From: Spirochaetota bacterium
Lineage (GTDB): Bacteria; Spirochaetota; UBA4802; JAFGJZ01
Length of the DNA: 64,000 nucleotides
Assembly (NCBI GenBank): GCA_016934935.1
Contig: JAFGRW010000054.1
Location: 17,900 to 81,899, forward strand
Reading direction: 5' to 3'
Part shown: piece by piece, positions 38,500 to 61,679 of the stretch
Numbering within the stretch: position 1 is the stretch's first letter
Layout of the letters: every line of letters starts with the position of its first letter
Made by a program: the position numbers and the translations under genes
The notes under the pieces: generated by a model
The model's database searches: none
Seen by the model: only the letters and a program-made list of their open reading frames with translations
What the model was told of the DNA's origin: nothing

Positions 38500-38579
38500 T
38501 AAATGTGCATGTTTCCCATACATAATAAAATGGTTGAATAATATTTGTTAGTAAACTAAGTGTCAAGAGAGTGTAATTA

Positions 38580-39131: not shown

Positions 39132-39318
39132 AGCACTTCGAATAATTAGAATGTTTTAAAGAATAAGATAGTTTAAGTAATAATAATGTAAATTTTTCTC
39201 GCTTAAATGCGATGAACATCTGAAGTACAGTACTCTATGGAAAATGCAGCAATATAATTTTAATAAAATGATTATATGGCATTTGTATTTTAATTATGAG
39301 TTATTTAGAGAGTAAAAA

Positions 39319-40404: not shown

Positions 40405-40462
40405 TTTTAGTTATTTAATTGATCTAACATGAAATTATTTCTATAGATAAGTGGTGTTAATT

Positions 40463-41569: not shown

Positions 41570-41626
41570 TTTGGCTCTACTACATTTCATTCTATTACTA
41601 TAAGGGCTATAATAATTGGAGGTTTT

Positions 41627-42274: not shown

Positions 42275-42360
42275 ATGATTGATGTAACTAATCGATATTA
42301 TTTTAATTGAGTCTGTTATAAATTTTTGAATCAAATTTAAAATTAAACCAATTAATTGAT

Positions 42361-42415
42361 AAAGCCGAAAAGCCCAGCCTGTAATAAATTATTACAGGCT
42401 GGGCTTTTCGGCTTT
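42361..42415. repeat. perfect 25-bp inverted repeat (bidirectional terminator) overlapping the permease stop
   Basis: AAAGCCGAAAAGCCCAGCCTGTAAT (42361-42385) is followed by AAATT, then the exact reverse complement (42391-42415). The right arm encodes the last 7 codons (KAEKPSL) and stop of the minus-strand permease. Confidence 0.8.
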
Positions 42416-43942: not shown

Positions 43943-44895
43943 TGATCAAGATTATCCTCGATTTCTGTTAAAGGGATAGAGACGGTTTGTTCAGGATGCA
44001 GAGCATGGGAGAAAACTTCAGGAAGTTCTGTATTGGTTACGGGGAACATCCACTGATTTAAGGGGATTTCTTTTTGAAACATATCCGAAAGCATAAAATC
44101 TATAAATTTTCCGGCTAATAATGTTTGTGATGAACCCTTAACTATTGAGGCCCCTTCAATTTGTAAAAAGGCCTTGCCCCCCGGAATCACGAGGTTATAT
44201 GCGGATGATCCATAATTATGTATTGAATAGGCGTTATCAGTGGCGTAACTTATCATCATGGGAGCCTCTCCTGATTCGAATTTGGCAAATGACTCTGACC
44301 AGCCGGTTGATGACGTCAGAACTGAACCTTTAAAACTTGACCAAAAATTTTTCCAGTTATTTCCATGAAGAGCAATAGTCCATAGTAAAAAATCAGTACC
44401 AGTTGAAGATGTTCTTGGGTCTTGAATCAATAAAGATTTTTTATGATTGAATAAATCACTAAAATTTGCCGGTACTTTTTTTATCTTGTCAGTATTGTAT
44501 AAAACGGCAAGTGCACCATAATCATATGGAGTAGTAAAATAATCTTTATCAAAAATAAGTGAAATATCCTTAATATTTTCAAGCTTTGGGCTTTTATATT
44601 TATCAAAAAGATTATCTTTTTTTGATTGTGCAAGCATAGTAGGAGTTATACCTATTGCGATATCGGCTTGGGGATTATCTTTTTCTAATTTAAGACGTGT
44701 TAATATTCCTGACGTAGAATCAAAAAGAACTAGTTTTATTTTACAGTTATGACTTTTTTCGAAATATGGAACAAGGCTCTTTTGTATCCATGAAAAACTA
44801 TCATAGGTATAAATAGTTAATTGATTGTTATCTTCAATTTTAGTACAGCAAAAGAGGATGGATAAAATAGAAATGATAAAAATTTTTTTTGACAT
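43903..44895 (-). CDS. ABC transporter periplasmic substrate-binding protein (Fe3+/thiamine PBP2 family)
   Basis: It has a signal peptide and a PBP2-like sequence. Its stop overlaps the permease start by 40 nt. Confidence 0.65.
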   Translation of the reverse strand: MSKKIFIISILSILFCCTKIEDNNQLTIYTYDSFSWIQKSLVPYFEKSHNCKIKLVLFDSTSGILTRLKLEKDNPQADIAIGITPTMLAQSKKDNLFDKYKSPKLENIKDISLIFDKDYFTTPYDYGALAVLYNTDKIKKVPANFSDLFNHKKSLLIQDPRTSSTGTDFLLWTIALHGNNWKNFWSSFKGSVLTSSTGWSESFAKFESGEAPMMISYATDNAYSIHNYGSSAYNLVIPGGKAFLQIEGASIVKGSSQTLLAGKFIDFMLSDMFQKEIPLNQWMFPVTNTELPEVFSHALHPEQTVSIPLTEIEDNLDQWLIDWEKIMVAD

Positions 44896-45021
44896 AATAC
44901 ATCCTGAAAATAATTAGATATTGGTTTTCGCTATTGGAACTTAGAAAATTACAATGTCCTGGGAATTGATATTGTATAAGTGCCTATTCCAAAATATTTC
45001 CGTTAGTTCCTTGTTAAAAAT

Positions 45022-45630
45022 TCAATTATCAGAGGTTGCTTTAATCAAGTTTAATGTTTCTGTGATACGCTCCGCAAGTGAATCGTATGTTGCATTAGCT
45101 TCGGCATCGTTTTGATAACCACCAGAAACTTTTGCCCAACCTGTTCCTCCGAAATGAGCGGTTGGTGAACTGTCGCCAATTACAATCATACCATGAATAA
45201 GCATAGCTGCATGAACCGACTGGATAGTTATCTCTTGACCTCCATTCCGGCTACCGCCTACTGCAACAGCGCATCCAATTATGTTTTTCAAAGCAAAATT
45301 ATTTCGTCTAAAAACAACAGTTCTGTCCAGAAACGCTTTTGCTTGAGCTGTCATTGATCCCATATAAACAGGAGTTCCGAAAATAATCACATCCGGTATC
45401 TCATTTTTCAAAGATTCAATCAGAAGTGACATGTCATCATCAATATTGCATGAATAGTTAGAATTGCAATAGCCACAGGCGTTACATGGCGATATTTTTT
45501 TCTGCGCAAGGGTAATCAATTCTGTAGTTACTTCTGAATTTAACAATTGAACTTTGTTAAGAATTTTTTTTAGCACAGAATGGGTCATCTGGTCTTTCCT
45601 GGGACTTGCGGATATTGCTGTTACTTTCAT
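45022..45630 (-). CDS. iron-sulfur flavoprotein / NADPH-dependent FMN reductase family (flavodoxin-like)
   Basis: It has ISASPRK, a compact Cys cluster (CNACGYCNSNYSC) and FGTPVYMGS. Confidence 0.7.
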   Translation of the reverse strand: MKVTAISASPRKDQMTHSVLKKILNKVQLLNSEVTTELITLAQKKISPCNACGYCNSNYSCNIDDDMSLLIESLKNEIPDVIIFGTPVYMGSMTAQAKAFLDRTVVFRRNNFALKNIIGCAVAVGGSRNGGQEITIQSVHAAMLIHGMIVIGDSSPTAHFGGTGWAKVSGGYQNDAEANATYDSLAERITETLNLIKATSDN

Positions 45631-45642
45631 ACTGCTTCTCCT

Positions 45643-46047
45643 TTATAATTTATATGTTTGATTCTTATGCTTTTCAATTATTTCTTTTGTAAGAGTCGGA
45701 TATTTTAAAATATAAATGGCAACTGCAATGCCACATATAATAATAATGAATTTGATATAGTTATTGTCAATAAAAAAGAAACAGGAAAAAAACATAACTG
45801 TCCACATAGAGATCACAGATAAAAACTTTCCTTTTAGCGATATTGCTTTGTAGGTCGTAAACGGTTTGATATAGGGAGCTGTAATTCGATTTGTATGCAG
45901 CTTATTATAAAGCTTGGGGGAGCTTTTAAGAAAACAGAAGGAAGACAGAAGTAAAAATGGGGTAGTAGGTAAACCGGGCAGGATAATACCTAATAATCCC
46001 AGTAAAACAGCGAGAGTGCCAATAGTCATTAATAAAAGGTTTCTCAT
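45643..46047 (-). CDS. ybaN: YbaN family inner-membrane protein (DUF454)
   Basis: It has LGIILPGLPTTPFLLLSSFCFLKSSPK. Confidence 0.7.
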   Translation of the reverse strand: MRNLLLMTIGTLAVLLGLLGIILPGLPTTPFLLLSSFCFLKSSPKLYNKLHTNRITAPYIKPFTTYKAISLKGKFLSVISMWTVMFFSCFFFIDNNYIKFIIIICGIAVAIYILKYPTLTKEIIEKHKNQTYKL

Positions 46048-47291
46048 TTATAACTTGATCCATAGAGTGTATTGCGGTCTCTATTGTAATCACAGATTAT
46101 ATCTATAAAAGTGTTTTGAGGAAACTCTTGGTGGAGATGAACTGGAACATAATACTCATTATAACCTCTGGTTAATCCGTTTCGGCTTTTCTCGGTTAGA
46201 ACAGTAGTTTTATGCTTATCAAATAGTTCAAGATAGTCTCTGTTGTGTCTATCAGAAATATTCATAACGATACCGCTTCTCTCTTTTTTTACAGATTCTT
46301 GAACCTGATTTTGAAACGATGCTGCGGCAGTGCCTTGTCTTTTAGAGTAACGAAAAGTATGTATATGTGAAAATTTGGCTTGTTCCAGAAAAATTAAAGT
46401 TTGTTGAAAACAGCTATCTGTTTCACCGGGAAAACCTGTAATTAAATCTGTAGTAAAGTTGAACAATTTATCGACAGAACGAATTTTTTGCAGAATATCA
46501 AGATATTGCTCAGTTGTATATTTGCGATTCATGGATTTAAGTATGGTATCGCAACCGCTTTGAAGGGAAAGATGTAGATGTTTGACAATTTTATTATCAA
46601 AAAGAAGATCTATAAAATTTTGATCAATGGTTTGAGGTGATAGAGAAGACAGGTGTATTCTGAAATTACCAGTTGCATTAAGCAGTTTTGTTAAAAGATC
46701 AGTAAGATTATTGCCATTGTAATTGTAATTACTAATCATAACACCAGTTAAGAGAAATTCATGATAACCTTCATCGCGTAAAAGTTTGAATTCATTAAGA
46801 ATGGAATCAATATCTCGACTAATTGGGTTACCCCTAACGTAGGGGATTATGCAATAGCTGCAATAATTGTTGCAGCCATCTTGAATTTTAAGATTGATTC
46901 TTGTACGTGTCGAATCAATGGCTGGACTGAAAGAAAACCGGGAATTTTTGAAAGTATCTTCGGGAAGTATAAAACTATTATCAATTAAATCAGGTATTAG
47001 GTATTTATAATCATTAGATAAAAAAATTATATTATCTTTGATAGAAAAAGATTCAACAAAGCATCCAGTAACAATGACATGACCGTTAGGGCCGGCATTT
47101 CTCTGGGCGTGATGTATTAGTGTGCGTGTTTTTCGCTCACTAGCGTGTGTAACTACGCAGCTGTTGATTATAAAAACATCCGCTCTATTACTATTTGTTA
47201 ACAGATGGCCGTTCTGTTTTAAAACAGAAATTATAGACTGTATTTCTGACTGATTTAGCCTACAGCCTAGAGAGTTTATGTGAATCTTCAT
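46044..47291 (-). CDS. MiaB/RimO-family radical-SAM methylthiotransferase (MtaB-like)
   Basis: It has an N-terminal methylthiotransferase (MTTase) domain (HINSLGCRLNQ) and a radical SAM CNNYCSYC motif. Its 3' end overlaps the ybaN start by 4 nt. Confidence 0.8.
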   Translation of the reverse strand: MKIHINSLGCRLNQSEIQSIISVLKQNGHLLTNSNRADVFIINSCVVTHASERKTRTLIHHAQRNAGPNGHVIVTGCFVESFSIKDNIIFLSNDYKYLIPDLIDNSFILPEDTFKNSRFSFSPAIDSTRTRINLKIQDGCNNYCSYCIIPYVRGNPISRDIDSILNEFKLLRDEGYHEFLLTGVMISNYNYNGNNLTDLLTKLLNATGNFRIHLSSLSPQTIDQNFIDLLFDNKIVKHLHLSLQSGCDTILKSMNRKYTTEQYLDILQKIRSVDKLFNFTTDLITGFPGETDSCFQQTLIFLEQAKFSHIHTFRYSKRQGTAAASFQNQVQESVKKERSGIVMNISDRHNRDYLELFDKHKTTVLTEKSRNGLTRGYNEYYVPVHLHQEFPQNTFIDIICDYNRDRNTLYGSSYK

Positions 47292-47433
47292 TTAATAATT
47301 TAAAACCTGAATGATCTATTTAATTTATCTGTTTTACAGAAATATTCTGTAGTCTGATTTTGTCAAGATTGATCTCTCAATTGTAGTCAATAAATGGATT
47401 CAGTTAACAGATTTTGTTGACAATCCTGAGTAT

Positions 47434-49041
47434 ATGGCTATCAATAGAATAATGATTTCGATACATTATATACAAATTCTTCTTATTACTCTAACTATCT
47501 TGCTGGTTCTTCATGTAGTCGCCGGGCATCTTCGATGGCAGGTGAGTTCAAAATACCAGACAGGTCTGATTATTGGCAATATAATATGGACAATCGGAGC
47601 AGTTCTTGAAAAATCTGTATCCGTGGAATCAGGTGCGATATTCTGGTCTAGTTTTTCTTTTCTGGGTTTTATCTTCAATCCGGTTATGCTTTTTCTCTTT
47701 ATTGCAGATTACTGTAATACAATAAATTACATTAAAAAAAAAATTAGAAAATATGTTTTTGTAATCCCATCGATTGAAATAATTGCTCTTTTAACAAACA
47801 GATATCATAATTTATTTGTCACAGATTTTGTCTGGCATAAAGGAGATCTTTCTTATCAGTTTGGGCCTTTGTTCTGGCTAATGGTTGCTTACTTATGGTT
47901 TTTGATCGCTGCATGTGTTTTAACTATTTGCTATTCATTATTTAAATCAAGCCAAAATAATATGAAAGAATTATTTGTTCTTATCGCTATTTGCCTGATT
48001 ATACTGCTGTCTAATTTTGCATACATTGTGAGGATAAATGTTTTATCAGATTATGATTTTACGCCCGTAGCTTTTATTTTGAGTTCCGCATTTATATTAA
48101 TCATGTTTAACAAAAATTGTTTTGCTGAGTTACTTCCGTTAGCGCATAATTTTGTTTTCTCGAAAATAAAAGCAGGAATATTGATTCTTGATAATCAAAA
48201 TCGGGTAGTCGAATATAACGATAATGTTAATAGACAACTTGATGATGCAAATTTATGCATTGGTTATAATATATCAGATTTGCCTGAAAGGTATGCTATG
48301 ATCCGTGATATATGTATGCAAAACAGCTTTTACGAAAATGAAATAATGATACGTTCAGATGCTCCAGAGTATTACGAAATGAGTATTGATGAAATTTTTC
48401 ATAATAACAATCTTTCTGGAAAGATTGTTATGCTATATAATATTACTCATCAAAAAAAAGTTGAAAAACAACTTAAGATAGGTAATAATCTGTTAAAGGA
48501 CAGGTTATTTCAAATAGAACAACTACAGCTGAAATTGGGCGAGCAGGCTTTTAAAGATCCTTTGACAGGCCTTTATAACAGAAAATTTTTATATGATGGA
48601 ATAGCTAAGGAAATTTCAAGATCGGAAAGAGAGAAGTGCGGATTCGCCCTTGTTGCTGTTGAGATGGACAATTTCAACAGTATTGATAACCATTACGGCC
48701 AAAGTGCCGGTGACAGAGTAATGGTAGAGATATCAAATGTTATTGCTGATACCATTCGAAAAACAGATTATATTTGCCGTTTTGACAGCGGGACACTGAT
48801 GCTTATTATGACTAAAATTAATGAAAAAAATATTTCTGAAAAAATGAAGCGAATAGTTGATAAAATTACATCGTTGAAATTTAGCACCATTGCTGAAGGT
48901 ATTTCACTTGTTTCACATTTTGGATTTGCTTTATATCCGCAAAATGGAAGAACACACACGGAGCTATTTTCAAAAATTGAAAAAATGCTTCGTGAATCAA
49001 AGGAACAGAGTATAAACAGAAGTATCATTCCTGAGAATTAA
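47434..49041 (+). CDS. membrane sensor with N-terminal 7TM region, PAS-like segment and degenerate GGDEF domain (I-site retained)
   Basis: It has about 7 N-terminal TM helices and DPLTGLYNRKF. The GG(D/E)EF position reads RFDSGTL, while RKTD (RxxD) sits 5 residues upstream. Confidence 0.75.
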   Translation: MAINRIMISIHYIQILLITLTILLVLHVVAGHLRWQVSSKYQTGLIIGNIIWTIGAVLEKSVSVESGAIFWSSFSFLGFIFNPVMLFLFIADYCNTINYIKKKIRKYVFVIPSIEIIALLTNRYHNLFVTDFVWHKGDLSYQFGPLFWLMVAYLWFLIAACVLTICYSLFKSSQNNMKELFVLIAICLIILLSNFAYIVRINVLSDYDFTPVAFILSSAFILIMFNKNCFAELLPLAHNFVFSKIKAGILILDNQNRVVEYNDNVNRQLDDANLCIGYNISDLPERYAMIRDICMQNSFYENEIMIRSDAPEYYEMSIDEIFHNNNLSGKIVMLYNITHQKKVEKQLKIGNNLLKDRLFQIEQLQLKLGEQAFKDPLTGLYNRKFLYDGIAKEISRSEREKCGFALVAVEMDNFNSIDNHYGQSAGDRVMVEISNVIADTIRKTDYICRFDSGTLMLIMTKINEKNISEKMKRIVDKITSLKFSTIAEGISLVSHFGFALYPQNGRTHTELFSKIEKMLRESKEQSINRSIIPEN

Positions 49042-50023
49042 TGATCTGATTTTTCATAATCATAAAGTCGTGACCTTCGAATGAAGGAGCACGCCTGAAA
49101 AAAAAGGCAATTGTCGGGGGTATGCAACCGAAGACTGTATCTGATAAATAGAAATTTCCAGGAGTAACGTAAGAATTGGCCGCGTGAAAAATGAGATTTA
49201 AAGAATTTGAAACAGATTTTCCTGCCATATCTTCGTTTAAATAAGTAACGTTTCCCAGATGAAGTATTATAGTAGGGTTTACAATAACGGGAGACTTTAA
49301 AGTTTCTCCAGAAAATAAAATTTTGTTCAGAAGAAAATTAAAAATTCCCATGAATATATTATGGTTATTGTCTTTATAGGGAAATAGAAAAAGTACTTTA
49401 TTATCATCGGTTATCCATAATTTTCCATCAAGTGCGCCAAAATAAGATTTTAAATAATCACGTACAGTATTAATTATTGATTCAGTAAATTTGTAGCCAA
49501 AGTGATTTTGTAGTTGAGTTACCTCTTCCAGCCGAAAATACAAAATGTAAAAAGAGTATTCTTTGCCTTCCTGAATTGAATTCCATCCCTTATCCGCTTT
49601 TTTAATGTTCATACGTAAGGAGTTGTTCATAATTACTTTATCGGGCAAACTAAAATTTTTATAACTGCGAATTTTTTTTATTCTGCCTGGAGTAATTGGA
49701 TACGCAATTTCTTTCTTTGAGATATAGTCACAGAATCCAGCAAAAAAAAGATCTGATATGGAAGCGATTTCGGATTTGGGATCGATAATTCCAAAATTAA
49801 TCGCAGCTTTATCTACAAAATCAGATATACTTAAATATAATTGATCTGCTTCCAGACCTTGTATATCATAATAAACCAGGTCTCCCGGGTTTATAGAGTC
49901 TATTGATGTATTAAACATATCCCTTTTATAAATGAATAATTCATAGTCTTTTAAAAGAGAATCAAACAGGGAGCCAATTTTTTTGCTGTTTGTGAAAACA
50001 TATATATTCATGAATTTTCCCAC
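49025..50023 (-). CDS. cyclase-homology-domain (class III nucleotidyl cyclase-like) protein, apparently degenerate; N-terminal unknown domain
   Basis: The C-terminal half aligns to CHD blocks. YSFYILYFRLEEVT lacks the first metal Asp. It also has GKLWITDDNKVLFLF and TIILHLGNVTY. It overlaps the downstream gene by 16 nt. Confidence 0.55.
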   Translation of the reverse strand: MGKFMNIYVFTNSKKIGSLFDSLLKDYELFIYKRDMFNTSIDSINPGDLVYYDIQGLEADQLYLSISDFVDKAAINFGIIDPKSEIASISDLFFAGFCDYISKKEIAYPITPGRIKKIRSYKNFSLPDKVIMNNSLRMNIKKADKGWNSIQEGKEYSFYILYFRLEEVTQLQNHFGYKFTESIINTVRDYLKSYFGALDGKLWITDDNKVLFLFPYKDNNHNIFMGIFNFLLNKILFSGETLKSPVIVNPTIILHLGNVTYLNEDMAGKSVSNSLNLIFHAANSYVTPGNFYLSDTVFGCIPPTIAFFFRRAPSFEGHDFMIMKNQIINSQE

Positions 50024-50931
50024 TGTAAGCGATAAATAAAATATGAGCCGGATTTTTTTGAATCATATGGAATAAAGGCAGAAGCAAGAACTCCTTCGAT
50101 TGATGTCATTACAGTATTTGTTGCAACAGCTGAATTAGGTGGAGAAATATTTTCCAACTTTATAGTATCCATAACAGGATCTTTCGTTTTAAGCATATCA
50201 TGATTATCAATATATTCTGTTACACCTGTATTAAGACCGACTCGAATTTGAACCGGATTATCAAGTATGTTCTCAAAAGTATTGTAAGAGAAAAGAGAAT
50301 GCAAAACTTCAATGCTGCTGTAAAGAGCTTTCGAAGAGTGATCTCCAAAGTGAAAAGCTGTTAGAACTCCGTCTCCCTCAATATGCCATATTCTTCCGTT
50401 TCGCGATTCTGTTGCCGATCTCACCAGATTGTGATACTTTTGATAAAAAGATAATACATCTCTATGTGAGTTCTTTTTAAGATGGATTGTTGACTGAACT
50501 ATATCGTACCATACAAAAGTGAATGTATAATCAACTCCCTGTTGCAGCACGCCCCAGTTTTTACTTATTCTGTATTGAGGATCTTCATAAACTTGCCCTG
50601 TAACCGGATCGATGCTAAACCCCATATCAAAAAGAGTTACAACGATATTGCGTAGTTTAGAAATCTTGTATTTACGCCCTTTGTATCCTTTTGACTGAAT
50701 TGAAAAAAAGACATTTATAAAGGGAATAAGCAGATTAAAGCGACTCATATCATCAACTATCTGTCTGGCAATATCAAGCCTTGGAATATCAAGACTGGCA
50801 GGAAGGTTTGAGTACGCTTGAATGTTATAGTCGGGAATAATTTCTCTGGCAAGATGAATCATGGATCTTTGATCAATTGATTCAGCAAGTGATTGGGATA
50901 CGAGTTTGTTAAATGTCTTATCTGTTTTCAT
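50008..50931 (-). CDS. class III adenylate/guanylate(nucleotidyl) cyclase-homology-domain protein with N-terminal unknown domain
   Basis: It has TFTFVWYDIVQST (metal Asp 1), NGRIWHIEGDGVLTAF (metal Asp 2) and QIRVGLNTGVTEY, the hallmark RIGIHTG-like strand. Confidence 0.65.
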   Translation of the reverse strand: MKTDKTFNKLVSQSLAESIDQRSMIHLAREIIPDYNIQAYSNLPASLDIPRLDIARQIVDDMSRFNLLIPFINVFFSIQSKGYKGRKYKISKLRNIVVTLFDMGFSIDPVTGQVYEDPQYRISKNWGVLQQGVDYTFTFVWYDIVQSTIHLKKNSHRDVLSFYQKYHNLVRSATESRNGRIWHIEGDGVLTAFHFGDHSSKALYSSIEVLHSLFSYNTFENILDNPVQIRVGLNTGVTEYIDNHDMLKTKDPVMDTIKLENISPPNSAVATNTVMTSIEGVLASAFIPYDSKKSGSYFIYRLQWENS

Positions 50932-51274
50932 AGTAAATTTAGATATCTGACCTTTTTTGATAAGTTGAAAAAAAACTATATTTATATTACGATTCTGTGT
51001 AAACCGGGATATAAAATCAATGATCTCTATTTGTATATATAAATAGTGATCATTGATTGATATGATTTACAATATACGTTTTCTATAATAGATAAGTGAA
51101 GGTAATAAAACAACAAATAAATCCTGATTTATTATAATTTTATGAGTTTTAAACAATCCGGCTGGGTTTATTGGTGACAATCTTGAACAATACAAGTTAA
51201 TATTTGTATAAAAAACTCTTGATTATCAAATGTGATAATATATAATTTGTGAAAAAGATTAGCGGGATCAAAAT

Positions 51275-53434
51275 ATGAAATGTATAGATGTATTACCAGG
51301 AGTAAAAATAGCGGATAATGGCCGAATATCGATAATGTTCGGATGTCCCCCTGAGATTATTAAAACACTACAGGTGCTCGATATTTCCTTTCCCGATTAT
51401 ATCGTTATTCCTGATACAATATATAAATACGGAGTTGTGCAAAACAGTACTGAATTTCCTCTTTACTATTTTGTTTTTGAACTTCAAAACTGCTTTAAGA
51501 AAAAACTGGGTATTATTGGGGATCTTGAAAGCGTTTCAAATAATATAGAACTTCTTAAATTGACGCTTATGGGACCGAGTTTGGATAATTATAGAGAAAT
51601 AGGTTCTAATCGCTTCTATAACCAACTGTACAAAGAGGCCAGGTATCTTTCATTGAAAAATGAAGACGGTGAAGAGTGTGCGATAAAAGATTTTGTTGAT
51701 ACATATGTTTTTGATGATAATGGAACCATCCAGATTGAAGATATCACCATCAAACATGAAAATGACAATGTGTATTCGATCAATGGGATCGAAATTGATA
51801 TAAATTTTTATGAACCACAGAGGCCGCCATATACTTTAAGAACCAACTATACGCCCAATGTTCCTTTTAAGTTTGGAGTAGATATCCTGGGAGGGGGATC
51901 TGGTTTTACTCCCCGTCAACCCTGTTCAGCTCTTCTTTTAAACTATAATTCGGAATTTATGCTTATAGACTGTGTTCCTTATCTTGATCACTCGTTGAAT
52001 GCCCGCGGTATTTCGAAACAACAGGTAGGTGCGCTTTTTTTGTCTCATATCCATGATGACCATTGCAATATGTATCCGCTTTTAGAGATGAATGATCGTG
52101 TCAAATTTCTTGGAACAAAAGAGATTTACTGGATGGCTTTGCGTAAACTGGCTCTTCAGACCAATGGAAATCCGGAATACTTTGATTCATTTTTTGATTT
52201 TGTCGAGTTAGAGCCATATAAAGAAAATGACTTTTATGGTATGTCCATTATTCCGCACTATACTGTTCATTCAATACCAACAATTGGTGCTACATTTAAA
52301 ATGAAAGATCGTGAAATTATTAAAAGACTTTGTTTCGTAGGGGATAACAAGTCTCTGGAAAATATTGCTCAAATGGTTGATGAAGGTATTGTGTCAGAAA
52401 AAAAATATCAGTATTTAGAGAGAGTCTATTCACGCAGATTCGATATACTTTTTCCTGATGGCGGAATGGGGCTGTTGCATGGTGATCCGGTGGATTCACT
52501 TAATTCAAAGTCTGATTCTGTTGTTTTTATGCATCTTGAAAAGCTCCCGGCAAAATTTGACGCAACTTTTTCTTTAGCGCAGGTTGGAAAGCGTTATAAC
52601 CTGATTGAAAGTAACCAGCATATGTATCATGCTTTTACAGTGCAGACTATCCAGCTGATTCAACAGGCGTTTCCTAATATATCATATAACTGGATAACTG
52701 CGATTATGAATGATGTGCGATTTATTGGTTATAATATTGATGACATCATACTTAAGCAGGGGGAGGAACGTCGGGGGGCAATCTATATTATTCTATCAGG
52801 TAGATGTCGCGTTAAACAGCACGATGGTGAAATTTTAAAAGAAATTGCGTTAAAAGAGGTCGGTGACTTTATAGGTGAAATGGCAATTATTAAAAATAAT
52901 GATCATCGAACAGCGTCGGTTGTGGCCGAAACTCCTGTAATACTATGCCAATTTGATGAAAAGCTGTTTTATCATTTTCTGGAAGAAAATAATCTAGTAG
53001 AATCTACAAAAAATATGTGGATTCAGCGTAGTGAGCTGGATACCTTTTTGCCATTTAGTGATTTTTCTGATTCATTAAACGAAGAGATTTCAAGAGCTTC
53101 GGTAAGAAGAAAAATTGAACCCGGATTTGTAATTATTCGAGAGGGGGATAATTCTACAAGTTTTTACATTGTTGTTAAAGGGCTTTTTTCTGTAGAAATT
53201 GATGGTGAAAAAATAAATGTTTTAAAGAAGGGAGATATATTTGGAGAATTTGGAAGTATTTCGGAATTAATGCGTACAGCCACCGTTACTTCACTTGAAG
53301 AAAGTATTGTGTTGGAAATACCGAAAAACGAGATAAACAGAATAATTGAATCCACTCCAGCTCTAAACTTCTTTATACACCGGCTGCTTAAAAAAAGGGC
53401 GGATTCAATAAACTGGACTAAAAATAAAAAATAG
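51275..53434 (+). CDS. metallo-beta-lactamase-fold hydrolase fused to two cyclic-nucleotide-binding domains (putative cNMP-gated phosphodiesterase/nuclease)
   Basis: It has an HxHxDH motif (LSHIHDDHCNMY). It has two CAP-family cNMP-binding motifs with intact phosphate-binding cassettes (PBC), FIGEMAII...RTASVVA and IFGEFGSISELMRTATVTS. It is 719 aa with an unassigned N-terminal 200 aa. Confidence 0.7.
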   Translation: MKCIDVLPGVKIADNGRISIMFGCPPEIIKTLQVLDISFPDYIVIPDTIYKYGVVQNSTEFPLYYFVFELQNCFKKKLGIIGDLESVSNNIELLKLTLMGPSLDNYREIGSNRFYNQLYKEARYLSLKNEDGEECAIKDFVDTYVFDDNGTIQIEDITIKHENDNVYSINGIEIDINFYEPQRPPYTLRTNYTPNVPFKFGVDILGGGSGFTPRQPCSALLLNYNSEFMLIDCVPYLDHSLNARGISKQQVGALFLSHIHDDHCNMYPLLEMNDRVKFLGTKEIYWMALRKLALQTNGNPEYFDSFFDFVELEPYKENDFYGMSIIPHYTVHSIPTIGATFKMKDREIIKRLCFVGDNKSLENIAQMVDEGIVSEKKYQYLERVYSRRFDILFPDGGMGLLHGDPVDSLNSKSDSVVFMHLEKLPAKFDATFSLAQVGKRYNLIESNQHMYHAFTVQTIQLIQQAFPNISYNWITAIMNDVRFIGYNIDDIILKQGEERRGAIYIILSGRCRVKQHDGEILKEIALKEVGDFIGEMAIIKNNDHRTASVVAETPVILCQFDEKLFYHFLEENNLVESTKNMWIQRSELDTFLPFSDFSDSLNEEISRASVRRKIEPGFVIIREGDNSTSFYIVVKGLFSVEIDGEKINVLKKGDIFGEFGSISELMRTATVTSLEESIVLEIPKNEINRIIESTPALNFFIHRLLKKRADSINWTKNKK

Positions 53435-53436
53435 TA

Positions 53437-53886
53437 TCAATCTTCACAGAAAAATTCTACAATTTCGGCCGCGTTTTGAGCTGACAAAAGCACCCGTCGA
53501 AAGGCATTGCTTTTAGTTGCGCGGGATATCTCCGATAGTGCTTCAATATGAGGACCCGATTGATCAGGTGGAGCCAACAGTAGAAAGAAAAGATGAGATA
53601 AGTTGCCATCATGTGAATCACAGTCTATTCCTTTTGGTGAAACTCCAATTGCCAGTACCAGTTGATTAACCTCTTCTGTTTTCGCATGAGGCAAAGCAAT
53701 GCCGTTTTCGAGTGCAGTGCTCATCTGATTATCGCGGTTGATTACAGCATCAAATACCGATTCTGTGTTCTTTACCTTGCCGGCCTTGTGAAGTATTTCT
53801 ATCAGTTCCCGGAAGACATCATGTTTCGTGTTACTTTCAAGTGGTACTTTTATTACATCTTCGTTTATCATTTCCAATAATGTCAT
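53437..53886 (-). CDS. ptsN: PTS EIIA type-2 (PtsN / EIIA-Ntr-like) regulatory protein
   Basis: It has GIALPHAKTEEV with the conserved His. It is 149 aa. Confidence 0.75.
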   Translation of the reverse strand: MTLLEMINEDVIKVPLESNTKHDVFRELIEILHKAGKVKNTESVFDAVINRDNQMSTALENGIALPHAKTEEVNQLVLAIGVSPKGIDCDSHDGNLSHLFFLLLAPPDQSGPHIEALSEISRATKSNAFRRVLLSAQNAAEIVEFFCED

Positions 53887-53898
53887 GTTCGTTACCCC

Positions 53899-54399
53899 TT
53901 AGTTGAGATTCTCATAGATATCATCGACTCGATCTTCATCTTTTACAATTAAAACTGAACAGGGCACACTTCGCATGGCTCGCTCACTTTCATTGTGAAA
54001 TTCATCTCTACGACTTCTAATCCTGGATAGTTCACCAATTACAAATAGATCAATTTCGTATGATCTGACAAGTTCTTTAATTTTCACATTGACCAATCCG
54101 CTCTCCTTTATGCATTCGGGAGCCAGACCCTTTGAAACAGCTTCAGTTTCAAAGTTTCTTAAATATTTATCTGCATCAGCTTCAAGATCGTTTTTGTATT
54201 CAATTTGTTCAGATTCAATAAAAATACGGCTTTTAACGAGGTCATTAAGAGCATGGGTATTAATGATAAATGTGCCGTATAGTTTTGCGTTCAATTTTCT
54301 GCATAAACAGATGGCATATCGTGCCGCGGTGACCGACTCGATAGAACCGTCCAGGTAAACGAGAACCCTCTCTACAGGATTATCCATATTTATCTCCAT
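53899..54399 (-). CDS. universal stress protein (UspA family)
   Basis: It has a Usp fold pattern (VLVYLDGS...CSVLIVKDED). It lies 4 nt downstream of V-ATPase subunit D. Confidence 0.7.
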   Translation of the reverse strand: MEINMDNPVERVLVYLDGSIESVTAARYAICLCRKLNAKLYGTFIINTHALNDLVKSRIFIESEQIEYKNDLEADADKYLRNFETEAVSKGLAPECIKESGLVNVKIKELVRSYEIDLFVIGELSRIRSRRDEFHNESERAMRSVPCSVLIVKDEDRVDDIYENLN

Positions 54400-54402
54400 T
54401 CA

Positions 54403-55044
54403 TTATTTGTTACTTAAACGGGCTTTAACTCTTTTCATTAGAATATAACGATCTCTCTCGTCTTCTTCAAGTCTGTTTTGTATGTATCTGATGGACTGGG
54501 TCAGATCTGGTATGGCAATTTTTTCTAAAGCATTTACCTTGCGTATGGTTTTACGCACTTCACGAGCCAGCCTCATAATGGATATTTTAAGTTCCGCCAG
54601 TTCACCCATTATGCTCAATATCTGCTTAAAGTCATTAATTGCGTTATCAATCCATGAACTTGTACCCTCAGGAGCGTAGTAGGGGCCATGCTCTTTAAAA
54701 GTTGTCCGTACAACCGGAAGCGATACTCCCATAATACGCCTGGAAGTCAGTGTAATTGATGATTCAATATTAATTGCAGAGGACAGGGCAGCGGCTTTTA
54801 GTTTGCCGTTTTCGATAACAGCAAGTCGTAGTGATTTGTGAGCTTGTTGAAGTGTAAAATCTGATTTTTCTTCAAAATCAACAGCAAGATCTATTAAGTT
54901 AAGAAGTTCCATAATAAGTATATTTCGTTTTTGATCCAGAAGCTCGTATCCCTGCGAAGCAAATTCAAGTTGCTGTTTGAGCCGAATCAGATTTGTTCGT
55001 GTGGGAGCTGGGCGATTATCTGCCATAGTGTTCATCCAGTTCAT
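54403..55044 (-). CDS. V/A-type ATP synthase subunit D
   Basis: It reads [30 protein letters not shown]. An alternative start at 55026 would reduce the overlap with subunit B. Confidence 0.85.
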
Positions 55045-56431
55045 CTTCAGTTATGCGTGTAAGTTCTTCCGGAGGAAGAATACTTAAACATTGCCATGCT
55101 ATATCGAGACTCTCTTCGATGTCGCGATTCTCATCATTGCGCTGGTTTACAAAGCGCCGCTCAAATTCATCACCGAATTCCATATATTGTTTGTCTAAAG
55201 CTGTTAGCTCTTCATCACCAATTACCGATGCTAAATTACGTACATCCTTTACATAACTGTAAGACGCAAAAAGTTGGCTTGCCAGATGAGGGTGATCGAT
55301 TCTTGTCATATCTTCACCGATACCGTCTTTCATAAGTCTCGAAAGGGAGGGTAATCCAGCGACTGGAGGGTAAATACCACGGCTATTCATGTCCCTGTCA
55401 AAAACAATCTGACCCTCTGTTATATAACCAGTTAGGTCAGGTATAGGGTGAGAGATATCATCATTCGGCATAGTAAGTATTGGAAGTTGAGTTATTGAAC
55501 CGGAACACCCTTTTATCATGCCCGATCTCTCATAGAGTTCTGCAAGATCAGAATAGAGATAGCCTGGATATCCTTTTCTGGAAGGTATTTCGCCTCTTAT
55601 TGTCGAAATCTCTCTTAACGATTCACAATAGTTTGACATATCGGTCATTATTACCAGTACATGTTTGCCGCAGTCGTAAGCGAGATGTTCTGCAAGTGTT
55701 AGAGCCGTACGGGGAGTGATAATCCGCTCGATGGATGGATCGTCGGCCAAAGACAGAAAGAGAGCGACTTTATCCAGTACTCCTGAAGACTCAAAAGAGT
55801 CGATAAAATAACGTGCTATATCATGTTTGATTCCCAGTGCGGCGAACACAACCGCAAAATCGGTTTTTTCACCTCGTAGAGTTGCCTGACGGGCAATCTG
55901 TGCCGCAAGCTGATTATGCGGAAGTCCGTTACCTGAAAATATTGGAAGCTTTTGTCCACGTATCAGGGTATTCATTGCATCAATAACAGAAATTCCGGTC
56001 TGAATAAAATCACGCGGATATTCGCGAGCTGTGGGATTAACGGGCAGCCCATTTACATCTTTCTCAATTGCAGATATGGGCGGAGGACCACCGTCAATGG
56101 GATTCCCCAGCCCATTAAAGACGCGTCCAAGCATTGATACGTCAACAGGAATCATTAGAGGTTCACCCTTAAAACGCATCCTTGTGCCGGGTAAGGTTAG
56201 GCCGCTGGTGCCCTCAAAAACCTGGACGGCAACAGCAGTTTTTGATGTATCCAGTACCATTCCTAATCTAACCTGTCTATTTTGATCAATACACTCGACC
56301 AGTTCGCGGTAACCGACTTGATGTGTATTGCGAATAATTATAATCGGGCCATCAATCTGATGAACACCGATATATTCACGTCCTTTAAGAAGATCTTTAT
56401 GAATTTTATCCAGTTTATCTGTTTTTATCAT
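55016..56431 (-). CDS. V/A-type ATP synthase subunit B
   Basis: It is 471 aa. It is the non-catalytic alpha/beta-family subunit with a degenerate P-loop region. Confidence 0.93.
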
Positions 56432-56438
56432 TTTTTAC

Positions 56439-58211
56439 CTACAGTTTTTCTATAGATCTTTCAAGACGTGCTTCAATACGGTCAAGAAGTGAAAGATCGT
56501 CGTTAGGAACAGTTAATTTCATTTTTACAATATCTTGAAGCACTTTTATACGTCTTAGATTAACTAAAGTTGTTCCCTTGCGAATGGAGTTTTCACCAAG
56601 CTCGGCATATTTGAGGATTATATCCATCATACGTAATTGTTTTTCGACAGTCGAATAGCAGTCGTTTTTATCAAAAGCGCTCTGTTGCAGAAATGCGTTT
56701 TTAAAAAGTGTGCATATTTCTATCACAAATCTCTGGCTGTCGGGTAATGCGTCAGGACCAACAAGTTTAACTACCTGCTGTAATTTTATTTCACGTTGTA
56801 AAAGCTCCATGATGCGTGAACGGTTACGAAACCAGTTGTCACCGGCTCTTTCTGCCCACCAGGGCGAGACTTCGTCAAGATATTCGGAGTAGCTTTCCAA
56901 CCAGGATATGGCTGGGTAGTGGCGAGCGTTTGCCAGATGTCTATCCAGTCCCCAGAAGCAACGGACAAATCTTTTTGTGTGCTGAGTTACGGGTTCCGAG
57001 AAATCGCCTCCAGGAGGAGAAACTGCTCCGATAAGAGTTACTGAGCCCTCTTCTTCATTAAGGGTTTTCATAAAACCGGCACGTTCATAGAATTCTGCTA
57101 TTCTGGTAGGTAAATACGCAGGGAAACCCTCTTCGGCCGGCATCTCTTCCATACGACCTGAAAGTTCTCTGAGGGCTTCTGCCCAACGTGAAGTAGAATC
57201 GGCCATTACTGCTACATGGTATCCCTGGTCGCGATAGTATTCCGCAAGTGTTACCCCGGTATAGATACTTGCTTCTCGTGCCGATACAGGCATGTTGGAC
57301 GTGTTGGCGATCAGTAAAGTTCGTTCCATTAAACTGCTTCCTGTACGAGGATCAACAAGTTTAGGAAACTCGTTAAGTACATCGGTCATCTCATTGCCGC
57401 GTTCGCCACAACCAATATAGACTATTATGTCTGCGTCACACCATTTGGCAATAGCGTGCTGAGTCATGGTTTTTCCTGTTCCGAACCCACCTGGAATTGC
57501 AACTGTACCGCCTTTTGCAAGAGGAAATAGTGTGTCAATAACTCTCTGCCCTGTAATAAGGGGAATGCGTAAAGGAATGCGGCTTGCCACAGGCCGTGGT
57601 TTTCTAATCGGCCAGCGATGAATCATGGTGAGGTCTTTAACCGTTGAACCATCATTAATTTTTGCAATAACCGTATCAACAGTATAGCTTCCGGGATTAA
57701 GCACAGAGTTAACTGTACCAGACAGATCTGGTGGACAGAGTATTTTATGTAGTATACGGTCGCTTTCCTGTACTGTTCCGAGTACTGTCCCGGGAGATAT
57801 GAAATCACCGTCATTTATTGCCGGAGTATAATTCCAGAGTTTTTCACGATCTATTGATGGCGACTGAATACCTCTTTTAATATGTGAACCTGATATTTCA
57901 GCCAGTTTTTCCAGTGGGCGCTGTATTCCATCATATATTGTCCCTATAAGACCGGGGCCTAGCTCAACAGAAAGCGGCAGTCCTGAACCGTAAATAATAT
58001 CGCCCGGTGCAACGCCTGTTGTATCCTCATATACTTGAATAATGGCATTGTTACCGGATAGCTTAATAATCTCTCCGATTAATCTTGCTTCAGAAACACG
58101 TACAAGTTCCATCATCATGCCGTCGGTTATTCCATCGGCTTCAATAACCGGGCCGTTAACCCGTTTTACCAGTCCGATGCTTCTCTCTTCCATTTGAACC
58201 TCGTCTTGCAA
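56439..58211 (-). CDS. V/A-type ATP synthase catalytic subunit A
   Basis: It is 590 aa with a GGFGTGKT P-loop and a non-homologous insert typical of A subunits. Confidence 0.95.
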
Positions 58212-58249
58212 GATGCCTTATCGCAACAATAATGCATCACAATTTTTTG

Positions 58250-58891
58250 TCAGTTATCAGAACTATCAATAATTTTGTTAATCGCCTGTCGTATATCTGA
58301 CTGATTTCGAATGATTCTGTCGTTAACAGTATTACTAAACGCTACAGATCCATCTTCGGCGTTTAGTACTACACCCTGACAACTCAGGTGATCAGATTCA
58401 TCCAATTTAATAACTGTTTCATTGCCTCTGATTTCAGAAACCCGTTTATTTACTAAATCCAGGAAGTCCCTATTAATAATTTTTTTTTCGGCGGCAGATG
58501 TTCTAATGATAGCACGAGAAAGATTCAAGCCAATGGCAGCCTCAATAATCCAGTTTAACAGGATATGCCTGTATTCAGGTTTATCTATCTTACTTGCCAT
58601 ATGTGCTCGGGTGTCAGAAATGAGTTTATTGATAAGCGCTTCACGTTCGCGAAGGGCTTTGCGTTTTTTTTCTACAGCTATTTGAGAAATTATAGAATTC
58701 CGTTTTTCATTTTCTCTTCGGGTTGCCTCTACTTCGGCATCACGAAGAATGTTCTCTTTTTGTATTGACCAGCTTTTTTGGTGTTCATCAATTTGAACAT
58801 TCGCGGTTCTGACTATTTCATCAGCTTTTTTTTGAGCTTCTTCAAATATACCGCTTATTACCGCCTGTTGACCCTTCTGTTCCATATTCAC
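58250..58891 (-). CDS. V/A-type ATP synthase subunit E
   Basis: It has a coiled-coil N-terminus plus a globular C-terminus, and operon context. Confidence 0.7.
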   Translation of the reverse strand: MNMEQKGQQAVISGIFEEAQKKADEIVRTANVQIDEHQKSWSIQKENILRDAEVEATRRENEKRNSIISQIAVEKKRKALREREALINKLISDTRAHMASKIDKPEYRHILLNWIIEAAIGLNLSRAIIRTSAAEKKIINRDFLDLVNKRVSEIRGNETVIKLDESDHLSCQGVVLNAEDGSVAFSNTVNDRIIRNQSDIRQAINKIIDSSDN

Positions 58892-59197
58892 CTACAAATT
58901 GATACCTATAGCTTCATTTACCATTTCCCGTAATCGGGGTTTGTTCAGATCACGACCGTCCATGCCTGGAATTTCAACTATTAGTGGAAAATCGTGGGAA
59001 AATGTGTAACTATTAACCAGTCCGCTGATTAAGGCGGACGCCTGTTCTGTAATAATTATGATCGCTGTTTCGGATAAGGACAATGCTTCTTCAAAAGCCG
59101 CTTGGGCCTCCTGTTCATTTGTGGCTGCACGTCCGTGAACACCCACCATGCCGAATCCGAGAACAGTGTCTTCGTCACCGATAATGAAATATTTCAA
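58892..59197 (-). CDS. V/A-type ATP synthase subunit F
   Basis: It is 101 aa and starts MKYFIIGDEDTVLGF. Confidence 0.75.
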   Translation of the reverse strand: MKYFIIGDEDTVLGFGMVGVHGRAATNEQEAQAAFEEALSLSETAIIIITEQASALISGLVNSYTFSHDFPLIVEIPGMDGRDLNKPRLREMVNEAIGINL

Positions 59198-59565
59198 AAT
59201 TTACCCAGAATCATCAACGCTGCGATAAAACCAAAAACAGCAATTCCTTCAGCCATTGCCACAAATATTAGAGCTTGACTTCCGACTTCAGGTTTCTCGC
59301 TCATAGCACCCATCGCTGCCGAGCCTACACGTGAGATAGCCATACCGGCACCTATAGCGCCAAGACCGAAAGCAATTGCTGCTGCAATTACTTCCCATTT
59401 TACTACTTCTGCTTGATGCTCATTTGCAATAGAGCTTAGGGATTCGGCTTCTTCCGCGGCCATTGCCGGAGAAACAAGAATTAATAGCGCTATTATCATT
59501 GTAAATAGAGTAATGAGAAGACTAAGAGCTATTCTTTTTCTAAAGACTTTTTGAGTTGAGTTCAT
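59194..59565 (-). CDS. V/A-type ATP synthase proteolipid subunit K (single-hairpin c-type with N-terminal extension)
   Basis: It has a Gly-rich TM (GLGAIGAGMA) and a carboxylate helix (AMAEGIAVFGF). It also has an extra N-terminal hydrophobic segment. Confidence 0.75.
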   Translation of the reverse strand: MNSTQKVFRKRIALSLLITLFTMIIALLILVSPAMAAEEAESLSSIANEHQAEVVKWEVIAAAIAFGLGAIGAGMAISRVGSAAMGAMSEKPEVGSQALIFVAMAEGIAVFGFIAALMILGKF

Positions 59566-59687
59566 TTTTACCTTCCTGTATTATCAATAAGCTTAAAACA
59601 ATTAGGTAACCTCCAATAACCAAAATAACACTTAATAGCTGTTACATTCTAAAAATGGTAATTTTAGAAGTTCCCATTGCCTCCTAT

Positions 59688-61679
59688 TTATTTCTGACGA
59701 AGTGAAATGGGCTCGTAAACCCTGCCCGAACCGCGAAAATATTTTGAGAAAAACTCGTAATAATTTAAGCGCAGTGACTGTATACCGGCTGATAGCCCTT
59801 CAAGGGCAATTACCAGTATATTTCCTATAATAATCACGATGAGTGACACAATCGCTGAATCAGATGAAGCCGCAATTTGAAAGAAAGCGTTCATTAAACT
59901 TACATGAGCAATTCCAAGACCAGCAATTCGTAAAAAAGAGAGGGTATTGGAAAGATATCCTGAAAAAAGCTCCAGCAGTTCGACAATCCAGTCCATAAGC
60001 CAATCTGTGATTATACCGATTTTAAACGGAGTTTTACATTTTATAAAAAATTCTGTCGGAGCTTTTATTGCAAAAAGTATACATGGCAGACCCGTTAAAA
60101 TATATAATTCTTTGTCTGGCGGAAAACTCTTGTAATTACTATTTACAAAGAAAAAAGCGGTGTATACGCCTCCAGCATAGAACCAGCTGCCTAAAATACC
60201 GCCTTTATCAAAGAGAAAAGAAAAGTATCGTTTTGAACGTATACAGTTTATCATGTTTAAAAGAAGTCCGCAACCGATAATCGTGACACCAAATTTTATT
60301 GTTATACCAAGTATATCGTAAATATCGCTTATTAGACCAGTTCCCTTATGCCCCAGTACAATTCCATGATAGTCAAACCATAGTGGTTTAAAAAGCCCAA
60401 GCCCAAAATATGACCCAAATAGAATTCCTGCTGCAACTGAAGCCATACCGCAGTACATAATCAGTCTTGCAAGTTCATAAGCTGTACCGCGTTTTTTCCG
60501 TTTTATAAGAGCGGTAATTGCTCCGCAAAGAGCAAGAACCAAGCCGTGACCGGCGTCACCGAACATCAATCCAAACATGGTTAAAAAAGAGAATGCAACA
60601 ATCACAGTTGGATCAATGCTTCCATATTGCGGCATCGAATAGTTTTCGACCACCCATTGAAACGGTTTAAGAAAAGTACCATGATTAAGTTTAACAGGAA
60701 CAATCGAGCTGTTGAGTAGAGGATCCTCTTCGGGTTTGACCCATTGTATGTAATACTTTCCATTCGTAATCTTCTTAATGATCTTTTCGGCTGCATTTTT
60801 CAAATGGCAAGGTAGCCAGCCGGAAAAAATTACTGTGTCTGATGTTTTACCAAAGCTGTTTTGAATTTTTATACATTGAGCGGTTATTGTCAGATTTCTC
60901 CAGGATTCAGTAAGTATCGGAGCGAATTTTCTGATTATATCTTCTGCCTCCTTTTCAAATCCGGTTTGCTCTCGGTTAAGTTCTTCGATTGAAGAGGCGA
61001 GTTTATTAAGAATCTCTTCTTTCTTTCCAGTTAATTCAGGTGGAAATTCAACACTTTGCCACTGATACCTGTCAAGTGCTGTGCCGATTCGTTCTTCGTC
61101 TCTGGACATATATATGATTATTGCTGATACTTCATCTTGAGTTGATTGGGAAAAGTGAATAACAGCAGGATATAACGATAGAGCCTGCGTTAATCCTTCC
61201 TTCCTGGATTTACGTATCAGACCGGTTGCAACTCTGACTGAAGACTCAGGAGGAGGTGACGCTTCGATGGAACCAAAAAGATCGGTTTGTCTCATTATCT
61301 CCGTTTTTCTATTGATGCTCTGTTGAATATCCTTCTGCTTGTCGCGAATTTGCCGAATTTGAAGATTCAGTTCATCAAGGCGATCGGTAACTTCTTTGGG
61401 ATCAACCGGAACCAGCTTTTCGGCATTAAGATCCGAGGTGTCAGGAAGAGGAATATTTACTTGTGACAATAATTGTTCTATTCTGGAGCGTATTTCAATG
61501 ATATCTGTTTCAGCTGTATCTTTGTCAAACGGCGAGAGCTGATTGGAAAATGAGAGTGTTTTATCATGTATATCGGTAAAATCAATAATACCTTCATTTA
61601 AAAGTGCTTTAGTAACGGAATCGGTATCTCTACGTAAAATTATTGCGTTTAATCTGATCATTGATTGTGGAAAGATCAT
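59688..61679 (-). CDS. V/A-type ATP synthase subunit I (a-subunit)
   Basis: It is 663 aa with a soluble N-terminus, a polytopic C-terminus, and an essential Arg region. Confidence 0.85.
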   Translation of the reverse strand: MIFPQSMIRLNAIILRRDTDSVTKALLNEGIIDFTDIHDKTLSFSNQLSPFDKDTAETDIIEIRSRIEQLLSQVNIPLPDTSDLNAEKLVPVDPKEVTDRLDELNLQIRQIRDKQKDIQQSINRKTEIMRQTDLFGSIEASPPPESSVRVATGLIRKSRKEGLTQALSLYPAVIHFSQSTQDEVSAIIIYMSRDEERIGTALDRYQWQSVEFPPELTGKKEEILNKLASSIEELNREQTGFEKEAEDIIRKFAPILTESWRNLTITAQCIKIQNSFGKTSDTVIFSGWLPCHLKNAAEKIIKKITNGKYYIQWVKPEEDPLLNSSIVPVKLNHGTFLKPFQWVVENYSMPQYGSIDPTVIVAFSFLTMFGLMFGDAGHGLVLALCGAITALIKRKKRGTAYELARLIMYCGMASVAAGILFGSYFGLGLFKPLWFDYHGIVLGHKGTGLISDIYDILGITIKFGVTIIGCGLLLNMINCIRSKRYFSFLFDKGGILGSWFYAGGVYTAFFFVNSNYKSFPPDKELYILTGLPCILFAIKAPTEFFIKCKTPFKIGIITDWLMDWIVELLELFSGYLSNTLSFLRIAGLGIAHVSLMNAFFQIAASSDSAIVSLIVIIIGNILVIALEGLSAGIQSLRLNYYEFFSKYFRGSGRVYEPISLRQK

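Follow-up and report, generated by a model that had tools for sequence, protein, structure and literature searches.

We analysed a window of 64,000 nucleotides, by which we mean the whole stretch of DNA at its full length, and followed up one gene in it whose product joins metallo-beta-lactamase (MBL) fold and cNMP-binding (CNB) domains (Table 1). The coordinates and the + strand given for this gene in a preliminary description were confirmed, and the motif strings quoted there translate from the open reading frame. The gene is stand-alone and monocistronic, with a divergent gene on its upstream side (50008–50931) and a convergent PTS-EIIA2 gene on its downstream side. Promoter and terminator scans around the gene gave counts that were not above the shuffled expectation, and the 343-nt intergenic region on the upstream side gave no Rfam match near threshold. 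Two cyclase-like genes, whose products have 307 and 332 aa, are located upstream of the MBL-CNB gene in the window (49025–50931).

Table 1. Features of the MBL-CNB gene and its product, with positions counted from the first nucleotide of the window.
Feature	Position	Strand	Remarks
Promoter-like TTGATT-16-TATAAT	51219..51246	+	Ends 29 nt before the ATG; weak, and such sites in the region are not above shuffles
Whole ORF	51275..53434	+	ATG start, 719 aa plus stop; full-length homologs exist
Predicted degenerate pseudo-MBL domain, residues 1–198	51275..51868	+	No conserved His, no HxHxDH
Catalytic MBL-fold binuclear metallo-hydrolase domain, residues 199–446	51869..52612	+	Motifs I–V
Motif II SHIHDDH, S257–H263	52043..52063	+	Fits [T/S]HxHxDH; family pattern [TS]H[IL]HDDHC
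Long connecting helix, MBL to CNB-A, residues 447–465	52613..52669	+	Secondary structure of the model
CNB-A domain, residues 466–580	52670..53014	+	Pfam, sequence search, Foldseek
CNB-A phosphate-binding cassette GEMAIIKNNDHRTAS	52874..52918	+	Conserved in the sister family too
CNB-B domain and C-terminal helix, residues 581–719	53015..53431	+	Pfam, sequence search, model
CNB-B phosphate-binding cassette GEFGSISELMRTAT	53243..53284	+	Intact here (E658, R667)

Synteny is preserved in an 81%-identical relative (DUF454, radical-SAM, 7TM-GGDEF, the MBL-CNB gene, EIIA, Usp, V-ATPase), which does not carry the two cyclase-like genes found upstream in the window. The GGDEF gene adjoins the MBL-CNB gene in the two closest genomes and is not conserved beyond the closest relative. 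A conserved operon partner was sought by all-against-all clustering of ORFs in the flanks, and no family reached beyond 13 of 79 loci; the cyclase-like genes had no homolog in the flanks of the 79 other loci. The neighbors that did recur were lineage-specific housekeeping genes (ABC ATPase, acyl-CoA dehydrogenase/synthetase, F420 synthesis, MCP, and DAHP synthase), and in Leptospirales and a gammaproteobacterial clade the MBL-CNB gene shows the behavior of a chromosomal gene passed on vertically.

The architecture of the protein is pseudo-MBL, catalytic MBL, CNB-A, CNB-B. The AlphaFold2 model, obtained with an alignment of 52 full-length homologs (A1), was very confident (mean pLDDT 91.5, pTM 0.90). 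Motif II lies inside an MBL fold in this model, with the alpha-beta/beta-alpha sandwich present, as had been proposed for the HxHxDH region from the sequence. The metal-site motifs comprise D232 (motif I), H258/H260/D262/H263 (II), H332 (III), D357 (IV), and H420 (V), and H402 is likely the phosphate-contacting His. Among 169 distinct full-length homologs, D232, H258, H260, D261, D262, H263, H332, D357, D395, H402, D407, and H420 were each found in 168–169. The active site of Trz1 consists of five His and two Asp plus a phosphate-contacting His (PMC5449637), and the canonical set in the window protein matches this scheme. The invariance of the nine canonical MBL positions implies selection for catalysis.

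At the sequence level, the MBL signal is marginal. Lactamase_B in Pfam scored 21.8 bits against the whole protein, just under the cut-off of 22.7, and 24.0 bits when residues 201–460 were used alone. The best NCBIfam match of the catalytic region was RNase Z, which was sub-threshold (38.5 bits vs. a cut-off of 252, residues 201–347), and the "cyclic nucleotide-degrading phosphodiesterase" model NF041851 gave 23.6 bits vs. a cut-off of 400. PF23023 (13.7–15 vs. 50) and PF12706 (15–17.2 vs. 27) also stayed below their cut-offs, although precomputed matches to both are listed for relatives of the window protein. There was no match to the classical class-II phosphodiesterase (PDE) family PF02112, to which yeast PDE1, V. 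fischeri CpdP, and Dictyostelium PdsA belong and whose HxHLDH signature is absent. When a profile of the catalytic region was compared with PDB sequences, the matches included Apyc1 (1.6e-5), ELAC1 (5.9e-5), and the YhfI-like proteins 7t28, 1zkp, and 6kns; only about the first 70 residues align, indicating that the MBL domain is divergent. RNase Z and PhnP resemble the fold equally well, so that structure gives no guide to the substrate.

The preliminary description had found nothing recognizable in the roughly 200-residue N-terminal region. This holds for sequence searches: residues 1–200 had no Pfam family above cut-off and no match among PDB sequences, even when searched as a 23-sequence profile (best E = 0.89). 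It does not hold for the fold, which in the AlphaFold2 model is a pseudo-MBL, with 141 of the 198 residues aligned to the MBL core in structural comparison. Going by the model, the N-terminal domain is a catalytically dead copy of the MBL domain. It contains a single His, which is not conserved, and lacks HxHxDH, and so cannot hold a binuclear center. A profile–profile comparison between the N-terminal and catalytic domains showed no sequence trace of duplication (hhalign probability 0.7%), which makes the pseudo-MBL assignment a structural one only. The modeled inter-domain arrangement is like that of long RNase Z, and the two MBL domains together superpose on ELAC2 over 357 residues and on Trz1 over 370.

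Conserved positions in this domain are G23, P25, E27, K30, D47, E60, F61, and Y64, all invariant in the window family, and six of them (G23, E27, K30, E60, F61, and Y64) are common to the window family and the sister family described below. The polar residues E27, K30, and E60, with F61 and Y64, would lie in the pseudo-active-site region and are invariant across both deeply diverged families. One could imagine that the pseudo-MBL domain, beyond acting as a structural stand-in, forms a second, non-catalytic site for a nucleotide or product, or completes the substrate pocket in trans. The enzyme would then integrate two signals, from a ligand at the pseudo-site and from cNMP at the CNB domains, or hydrolyze a messenger other than the one it senses. 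We regard this as speculative and rather unlikely; if true, it would make the protein a new node through which cAMP/cGMP signaling in spirochaetes and marine Gammaproteobacteria is tied to a different nucleotide pool.

The C-terminal sensor module is recognized with ease. Both CNB domains were identified by cNMP_binding PF00027 (118.2 bits vs. a cut-off of 27.5, E = 1.6e-34), Plasmodium PKG was the best match over residues 466–700 in a sequence search (E = 1.6e-25), and CNB-A/CNB-B tandems from PKG and from the regulatory subunits of PKA dominated the Foldseek matches in the PDB (E about 1e-18). The CNB domain of Bdellovibrio Bd1971 was also a structural match. As the preliminary description had it, both domains keep the Glu and Arg of the phosphate-binding cassette (PBC), and GEMAIIKNNDHRTAS and GEFGSISELMRTAT align to the PBCs of PKG. 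In the CNB-A cassette, G534 and A547/S548 are present in all 169 homologs, R545 in 166, and position 535 is Glu in 150 and Asp in 19. In the CNB-B cassette, E658 is retained in 113/169 and R667 in 121/169; most spirochaete members, the window protein among them, have this cassette intact, and it has degenerated in the sister family and, to W/N, in the gammaproteobacterial clade. With the CNB-A cassette conserved throughout and that of CNB-B variable, CNB-A would be the sensor site that all members have, and CNB-B a second, optional one that is kept here. The Arg-Thr pairs at 545–546 and 667–668 resemble the PKG-type RT(A) motif. In most family members the PBC Arg is followed by Ser or Asn, so that selectivity for cAMP vs. 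cGMP is not readable from the cassettes.

Fusions of an MBL hydrolase to two CNB domains had been thought uncommon, and this proved wrong. A first homology search gave 470 significant clusters; the best 120 were nearly all 700–750 aa long with the same architecture, and came from Leptospiraceae, Turneriella, other Spirochaetota, and some Pseudomonadota. Relatives matching the conserved motifs numbered 275 in species-representative genomes, and the best 80 of these belonged to Leptospirales/Spirochaetota (46–81% identity) and to a gammaproteobacterial clade (34–40%) made up of Pseudohongiella, Azotimanducaceae, and other Pseudomonadales. A profile search of 1.84 billion representatives yielded 576 proteins with E ≤ 1e-30. 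These included variants of the core: CNB-less pseudo-MBL+MBL proteins of about 470 aa, N-terminal fusions to REC (P0264) or CHASE2 (P0237), and a C-terminal FhuF-like domain (P0228), architectures that are typical of signal-transduction output domains.

Five representatives among the 576 carried THCHADHD[ASG]. One of them, P0241, has the exact THCHADHDS, and a search started from it brought up a sister family of at least 1,798 clusters, with proteins of about 720 aa and the same Pfam set, that ranges over Desulfobacterota, Myxococcota, Spirochaetales, Brevinematales, Ozemobacteraceae, Wallbacteria, and Sericytochromatia. The sister family keeps the canonical set D232, H258, H260, D262, H263, H332, D357 (96/118), H402, and H420, and varies at H328 and D407. 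Several of its NCBI records are named "cAMP/cGMP-dependent 3′,5′-cyclic-AMP/GMP phosphodiesterase", a name presumably transferred from the Dictyostelium GbpB/PdeE entry. The window protein is colinear with one record so named (P0311) over residues 20–669 (BLASTP 2e-25, 20% identity), and its N-terminal, MBL, and CNB-A domains each share about 22% identity with the sister family. The colinear alignment and the shared pseudo-MBL residues indicate that the four-domain architecture is an old and very widespread bacterial design. An 867-aa match (P0230) had been considered as Dictyostelium GbpA and was rejected, as P0230 is metagenomic.

An MBL-type PDE gated by fused CNB domains is already known from Dictyostelium, where it has been characterized, and some annotation pipelines name bacterial members accordingly. 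In the Dictyostelium class IIb enzymes, an MBL catalytic domain is combined with two cNMP-binding domains, and cGMP or cAMP bound there activates hydrolysis of the same nucleotide (PMC11988041, PMC3188802). GbpA/PdeD (PDE5) and GbpB/PdeE (PDE6) share with the window protein the order of MBL followed by two CNB domains, and all have HxHxDH. Their motif II is HCHADHDS (PMC3188802), which differs at two family-invariant positions from the [TS]H[IL]HDDHC of the window family. The window protein thus belongs to the H[IL]HDDHC branch, whereas the Dictyostelium enzymes, placed by motif alone, would fall in the HCHADHD branch, and the link to PdeD/PdeE, GenBank AAL06059 and AAL06060, runs via bacterial proteins of the P0241/P0311 type, which are colinear with the window protein over all four domains. 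The motif [T/S]HxHxDH defines the cAMP-degrading "atypical class-II PDEs" (Rv1339, CpdA, YhfI), which are closely related to RNase Z (PMC9293780). SHIHDDH at residues 257–263 fits this motif, although the PF12706, PF23023, and NF041851 scores are below cut-off. In contrast to enzymes of the Apyc1/YhfI/BA1088/Rv1339 type, which are single-domain homodimers of about 250 aa without sensors, the window protein has a dead MBL domain in front and two CNB domains behind.

By analogy with these systems, we consider it reasonably likely that the window protein is a cytosolic, stand-alone, cNMP-regulated 3′,5′-cyclic-nucleotide PDE of the MBL "atypical class II/class IIb" type. In such an enzyme, a two-metal center formed by H258, H260, D262, H263, H332, D357, and H420, with H402 near the phosphate, would activate a water that opens the 3′,5′-phosphodiester of cAMP and/or cGMP. 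The dead N-terminal MBL domain would, in the manner of long-form RNase Z, take the place of the second subunit of homodimeric Apyc1, YhfI, and RNase Z, so that the modeled protein probably acts as a monomeric pseudo-dimer. The PKA-R/PKG-like CNB tandem would sense the messenger, and binding of cNMP at CNB-A, and here also at CNB-B, would relieve autoinhibition. With rising cNMP, hydrolysis would become faster, providing substrate-activated negative feedback as in GbpA/PdeD and GbpB/PdeE. We infer activation by cNMP at the CNB domains by analogy with GbpA/GbpB (PMC11988041) and Bd1971 (PMC6717892), and we likewise infer that cNMP is the substrate of the MBL domain. In the searchable literature, we found no bacterial MBL-CNB PDE with characterization or activity data.

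Bdellovibrio Bd1971 is a bacterial precedent for allosteric control of this kind: its cAMP-sensing CNB domain switches on a fused EAL c-di-GMP PDE (PMC6717892). Bd1971 differs from the window protein in having EAL rather than MBL and, in place of the PKA/PKG-like tandem, a single CNB that is domain-swapped; moreover, it hydrolyzes something other than the ligand it senses. In another reading, the CNB domains of the window protein might sense cAMP/cGMP while the MBL domain cuts another phosphodiester (2′,3′-cNMP, phosphoribosyl-1,2-cyclic phosphate, or a cyclic or linear dinucleotide), so that one messenger would control the turnover of another. Enzymes of the PhnP family equal Apyc1 in structural closeness, and the two closest genomes have a GGDEF gene beside the MBL-CNB gene, but this neighbor is not conserved outside the closest relative. 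GbpA and GbpB, the only characterized proteins with such an architecture, hydrolyze the nucleotide that they sense, and both [T/S]HxHxDH and the nearest profile matches (Apyc1, YhfI-like) belong to 3′,5′-cNMP PDEs. We consider such cross-talk unlikely. We find it improbable that the protein is a cNMP-gated ribonuclease of the RNase Z/BN type, which, as in long-form RNase Z, would hold RNA with its pseudo-MBL half and cleave it with its active half, cNMP acting as the switch. RNase Z is the best NCBIfam match of the catalytic region, the MBL pair superposes on ELAC2 and Trz1, and one pipeline labels a relative "ribonuclease BN". Long-form RNase Z (human ELAC2, yeast Trz1) likewise carries a dead N-terminal and an active C-terminal MBL in one chain, but the resemblance is structural only. 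The N-terminal half of the window protein (198 aa) is much shorter, a tRNA-binding arm is not evident, and RNase Z has no CNB sensor module. The PxKxRN loop of RNase Z (the P-loop named in PMC5449637) is missing, the window protein having GFTPRQPCS without the Arg-Asn.

The neighborhood bears on the idea of a Pycsar-like anti-phage effector, in which the neighboring cyclases would make cNMP upon infection and thereby activate the window protein as a nuclease. In PADLOC, the CNB region is picked up by PycTIR effector models (E about 1e-26 to 1e-28), but these matches cover only the generic CNB domain; the 307-aa neighbor weakly matches PycC cyclase models (25 bits) and Guanylate_cyc (19.9 bits), but adjacency to cyclase-like genes is unique to the window, such genes being missing from the syntenic relative and from the flanks of the 79 other loci. 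With housekeeping genes as recurrent neighbors and a vertical pattern of inheritance, a Pycsar-like operon is largely refuted, and we regard this role as very improbable. Source annotations from many pipelines would make the protein a non-enzymatic, CRP-like cAMP receptor, but no DNA-binding domain was found with Pfam or NCBIfam and the nine canonical MBL positions are invariant in 168–169 of the 169 homologs; this reading is hardly credible, and labels such as "CRP-like cAMP-binding protein" are misleading for MBL-CNB proteins. The sensor is close to that of PKA regulatory subunits and PKG, where both PBCs have Glu and Arg as in the window protein, with the difference that the regulated partner here is a hydrolase, not a kinase, and is joined to the sensor in cis.

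What is new is that the conserved N-terminal 200 aa are predicted to be a pseudo-MBL domain giving a long-RNase-Z-like pseudo-dimer, that CNB-A appears to be universally competent and CNB-B often degenerate as judged from their cassettes, and that an H[IL]HDDHC subfamily, with members in Leptospirales and marine Gammaproteobacteria, has been delineated. Recognition of the pseudo-MBL explains a conserved region that had been unannotated, and the monomeric pseudo-dimer that it predicts would parallel the evolution of long-form RNase Z. Cyclases for cAMP/cGMP and CNB proteins are abundant in Leptospirales and many other bacteria, and termination of these signals is poorly defined. The window family is a strong candidate for a feedback-controlled "off switch" of cAMP/cGMP signals, and the sister family adds thousands more proteins to the potential enzymes of this kind. 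The family appears to be a bacterial equivalent of the PDEs through which Dictyostelium, under stimulation by cGMP/cAMP, shapes its chemotactic signaling.

The surroundings of the putative cNMP-regulated phosphodiesterase (PDE) gene are listed in the table below. The diguanylate cyclase gene, which encodes a HisKA_7TM sensor region and a GGDEF domain, also adjoins the PDE gene in the closest relative, an 81%-identical homolog with a syntenic locus, and the adjacency is kept only there. It places c-di-GMP and cNMP signaling genes side by side. On the other side, the downstream end of the V-type ATPase operon carries a Usp gene as well as one of the PTS-EIIA2 type, and this gene order is likewise kept in the 81% relative. 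GC content is 0.30–0.36 at ~ 36–52 kb (36000–52000) versus 0.38–0.44 in the rest of the window. The rise of the cumulative GC skew ends at ~ 54 kb (about 54000), and gene orientation turns to the minus strand at the same point.

Features in the window around and within the putative PDE gene
Feature	Position	Strand	Remarks
Diguanylate cyclase gene, HisKA_7TM (7TM sensor) + GGDEF	47434–49041	+	Upstream of the putative PDE gene
Two ORFs, 307 aa and 332 aa	49025–50931	−	16-nt overlap; divergent from the putative PDE gene
Conserved stretch of the pseudo-MBL domain	51341–51466		ORF residues 23–64
V-type ATPase operon	53437–60000	−	Subunits D, B, A, plus other genes further upstream

The 307-aa protein gave sub-threshold signals for a class-III cyclase (Pfam Guanylate_cyc, 19.9 bits; PADLOC PycC, 25 bits), and by eye we found the two metal-Asp motifs, YDIVQST and EGDGVL, together with RVGLNTG. 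The 332-aa protein is its distant paralog (BLASTP, 3e-6), in which the cyclase motif positions appear degenerate. Judged from these motifs, the two proteins may therefore form a cyclase pair of a catalytic and a pseudo-subunit. Both genes are missing from the syntenic locus of the 81% relative and from every other locus examined.

Within the PDE family itself, we found the pseudo-MBL+MBL core in several architectures (P0264, P0237, P0228, P0185/P0210/P0212/P0253). Forms with a REC receiver or a CHASE2 sensor at the N terminus retain both CNB domains, another form bears a C-terminal FhuF-like domain in addition to the two CNBs, and the core also stands alone, lacking any CNB domain, as a protein of ~ 470 aa. 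What is conserved is thus the two-MBL unit, the predicted catalytic module, and its sensors can be exchanged. Across the window family and the colinear four-domain sister family, which share only about 22% identity, six residues of the catalytically dead N-terminal domain show no or almost no variation: G23, E27, K30, E60, F61, and Y64. Such conservation of polar residues in a pseudo-enzyme domain suggests a putative interface or ligand site.

In the gammaproteobacterial clade (L055–L085), the phosphate-binding cassette of CNB-B lacks its Glu and Arg (replaced, e.g., by W and N), and both residues are also lost in most of the sister family (P0290–P0408), whereas the CNB-A cassette is intact throughout both groups. 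Two spirochaete MAGs each encode two paralogs of the family, L032/L053 in UBA6919 and L011/L052 in SRR4028170_bin.30, and in each pair one paralog is about 51–52% and the other about 38% identical to the window protein. The presence of two paralogs per MAG suggests functional diversification, for example toward differing nucleotide specificities.
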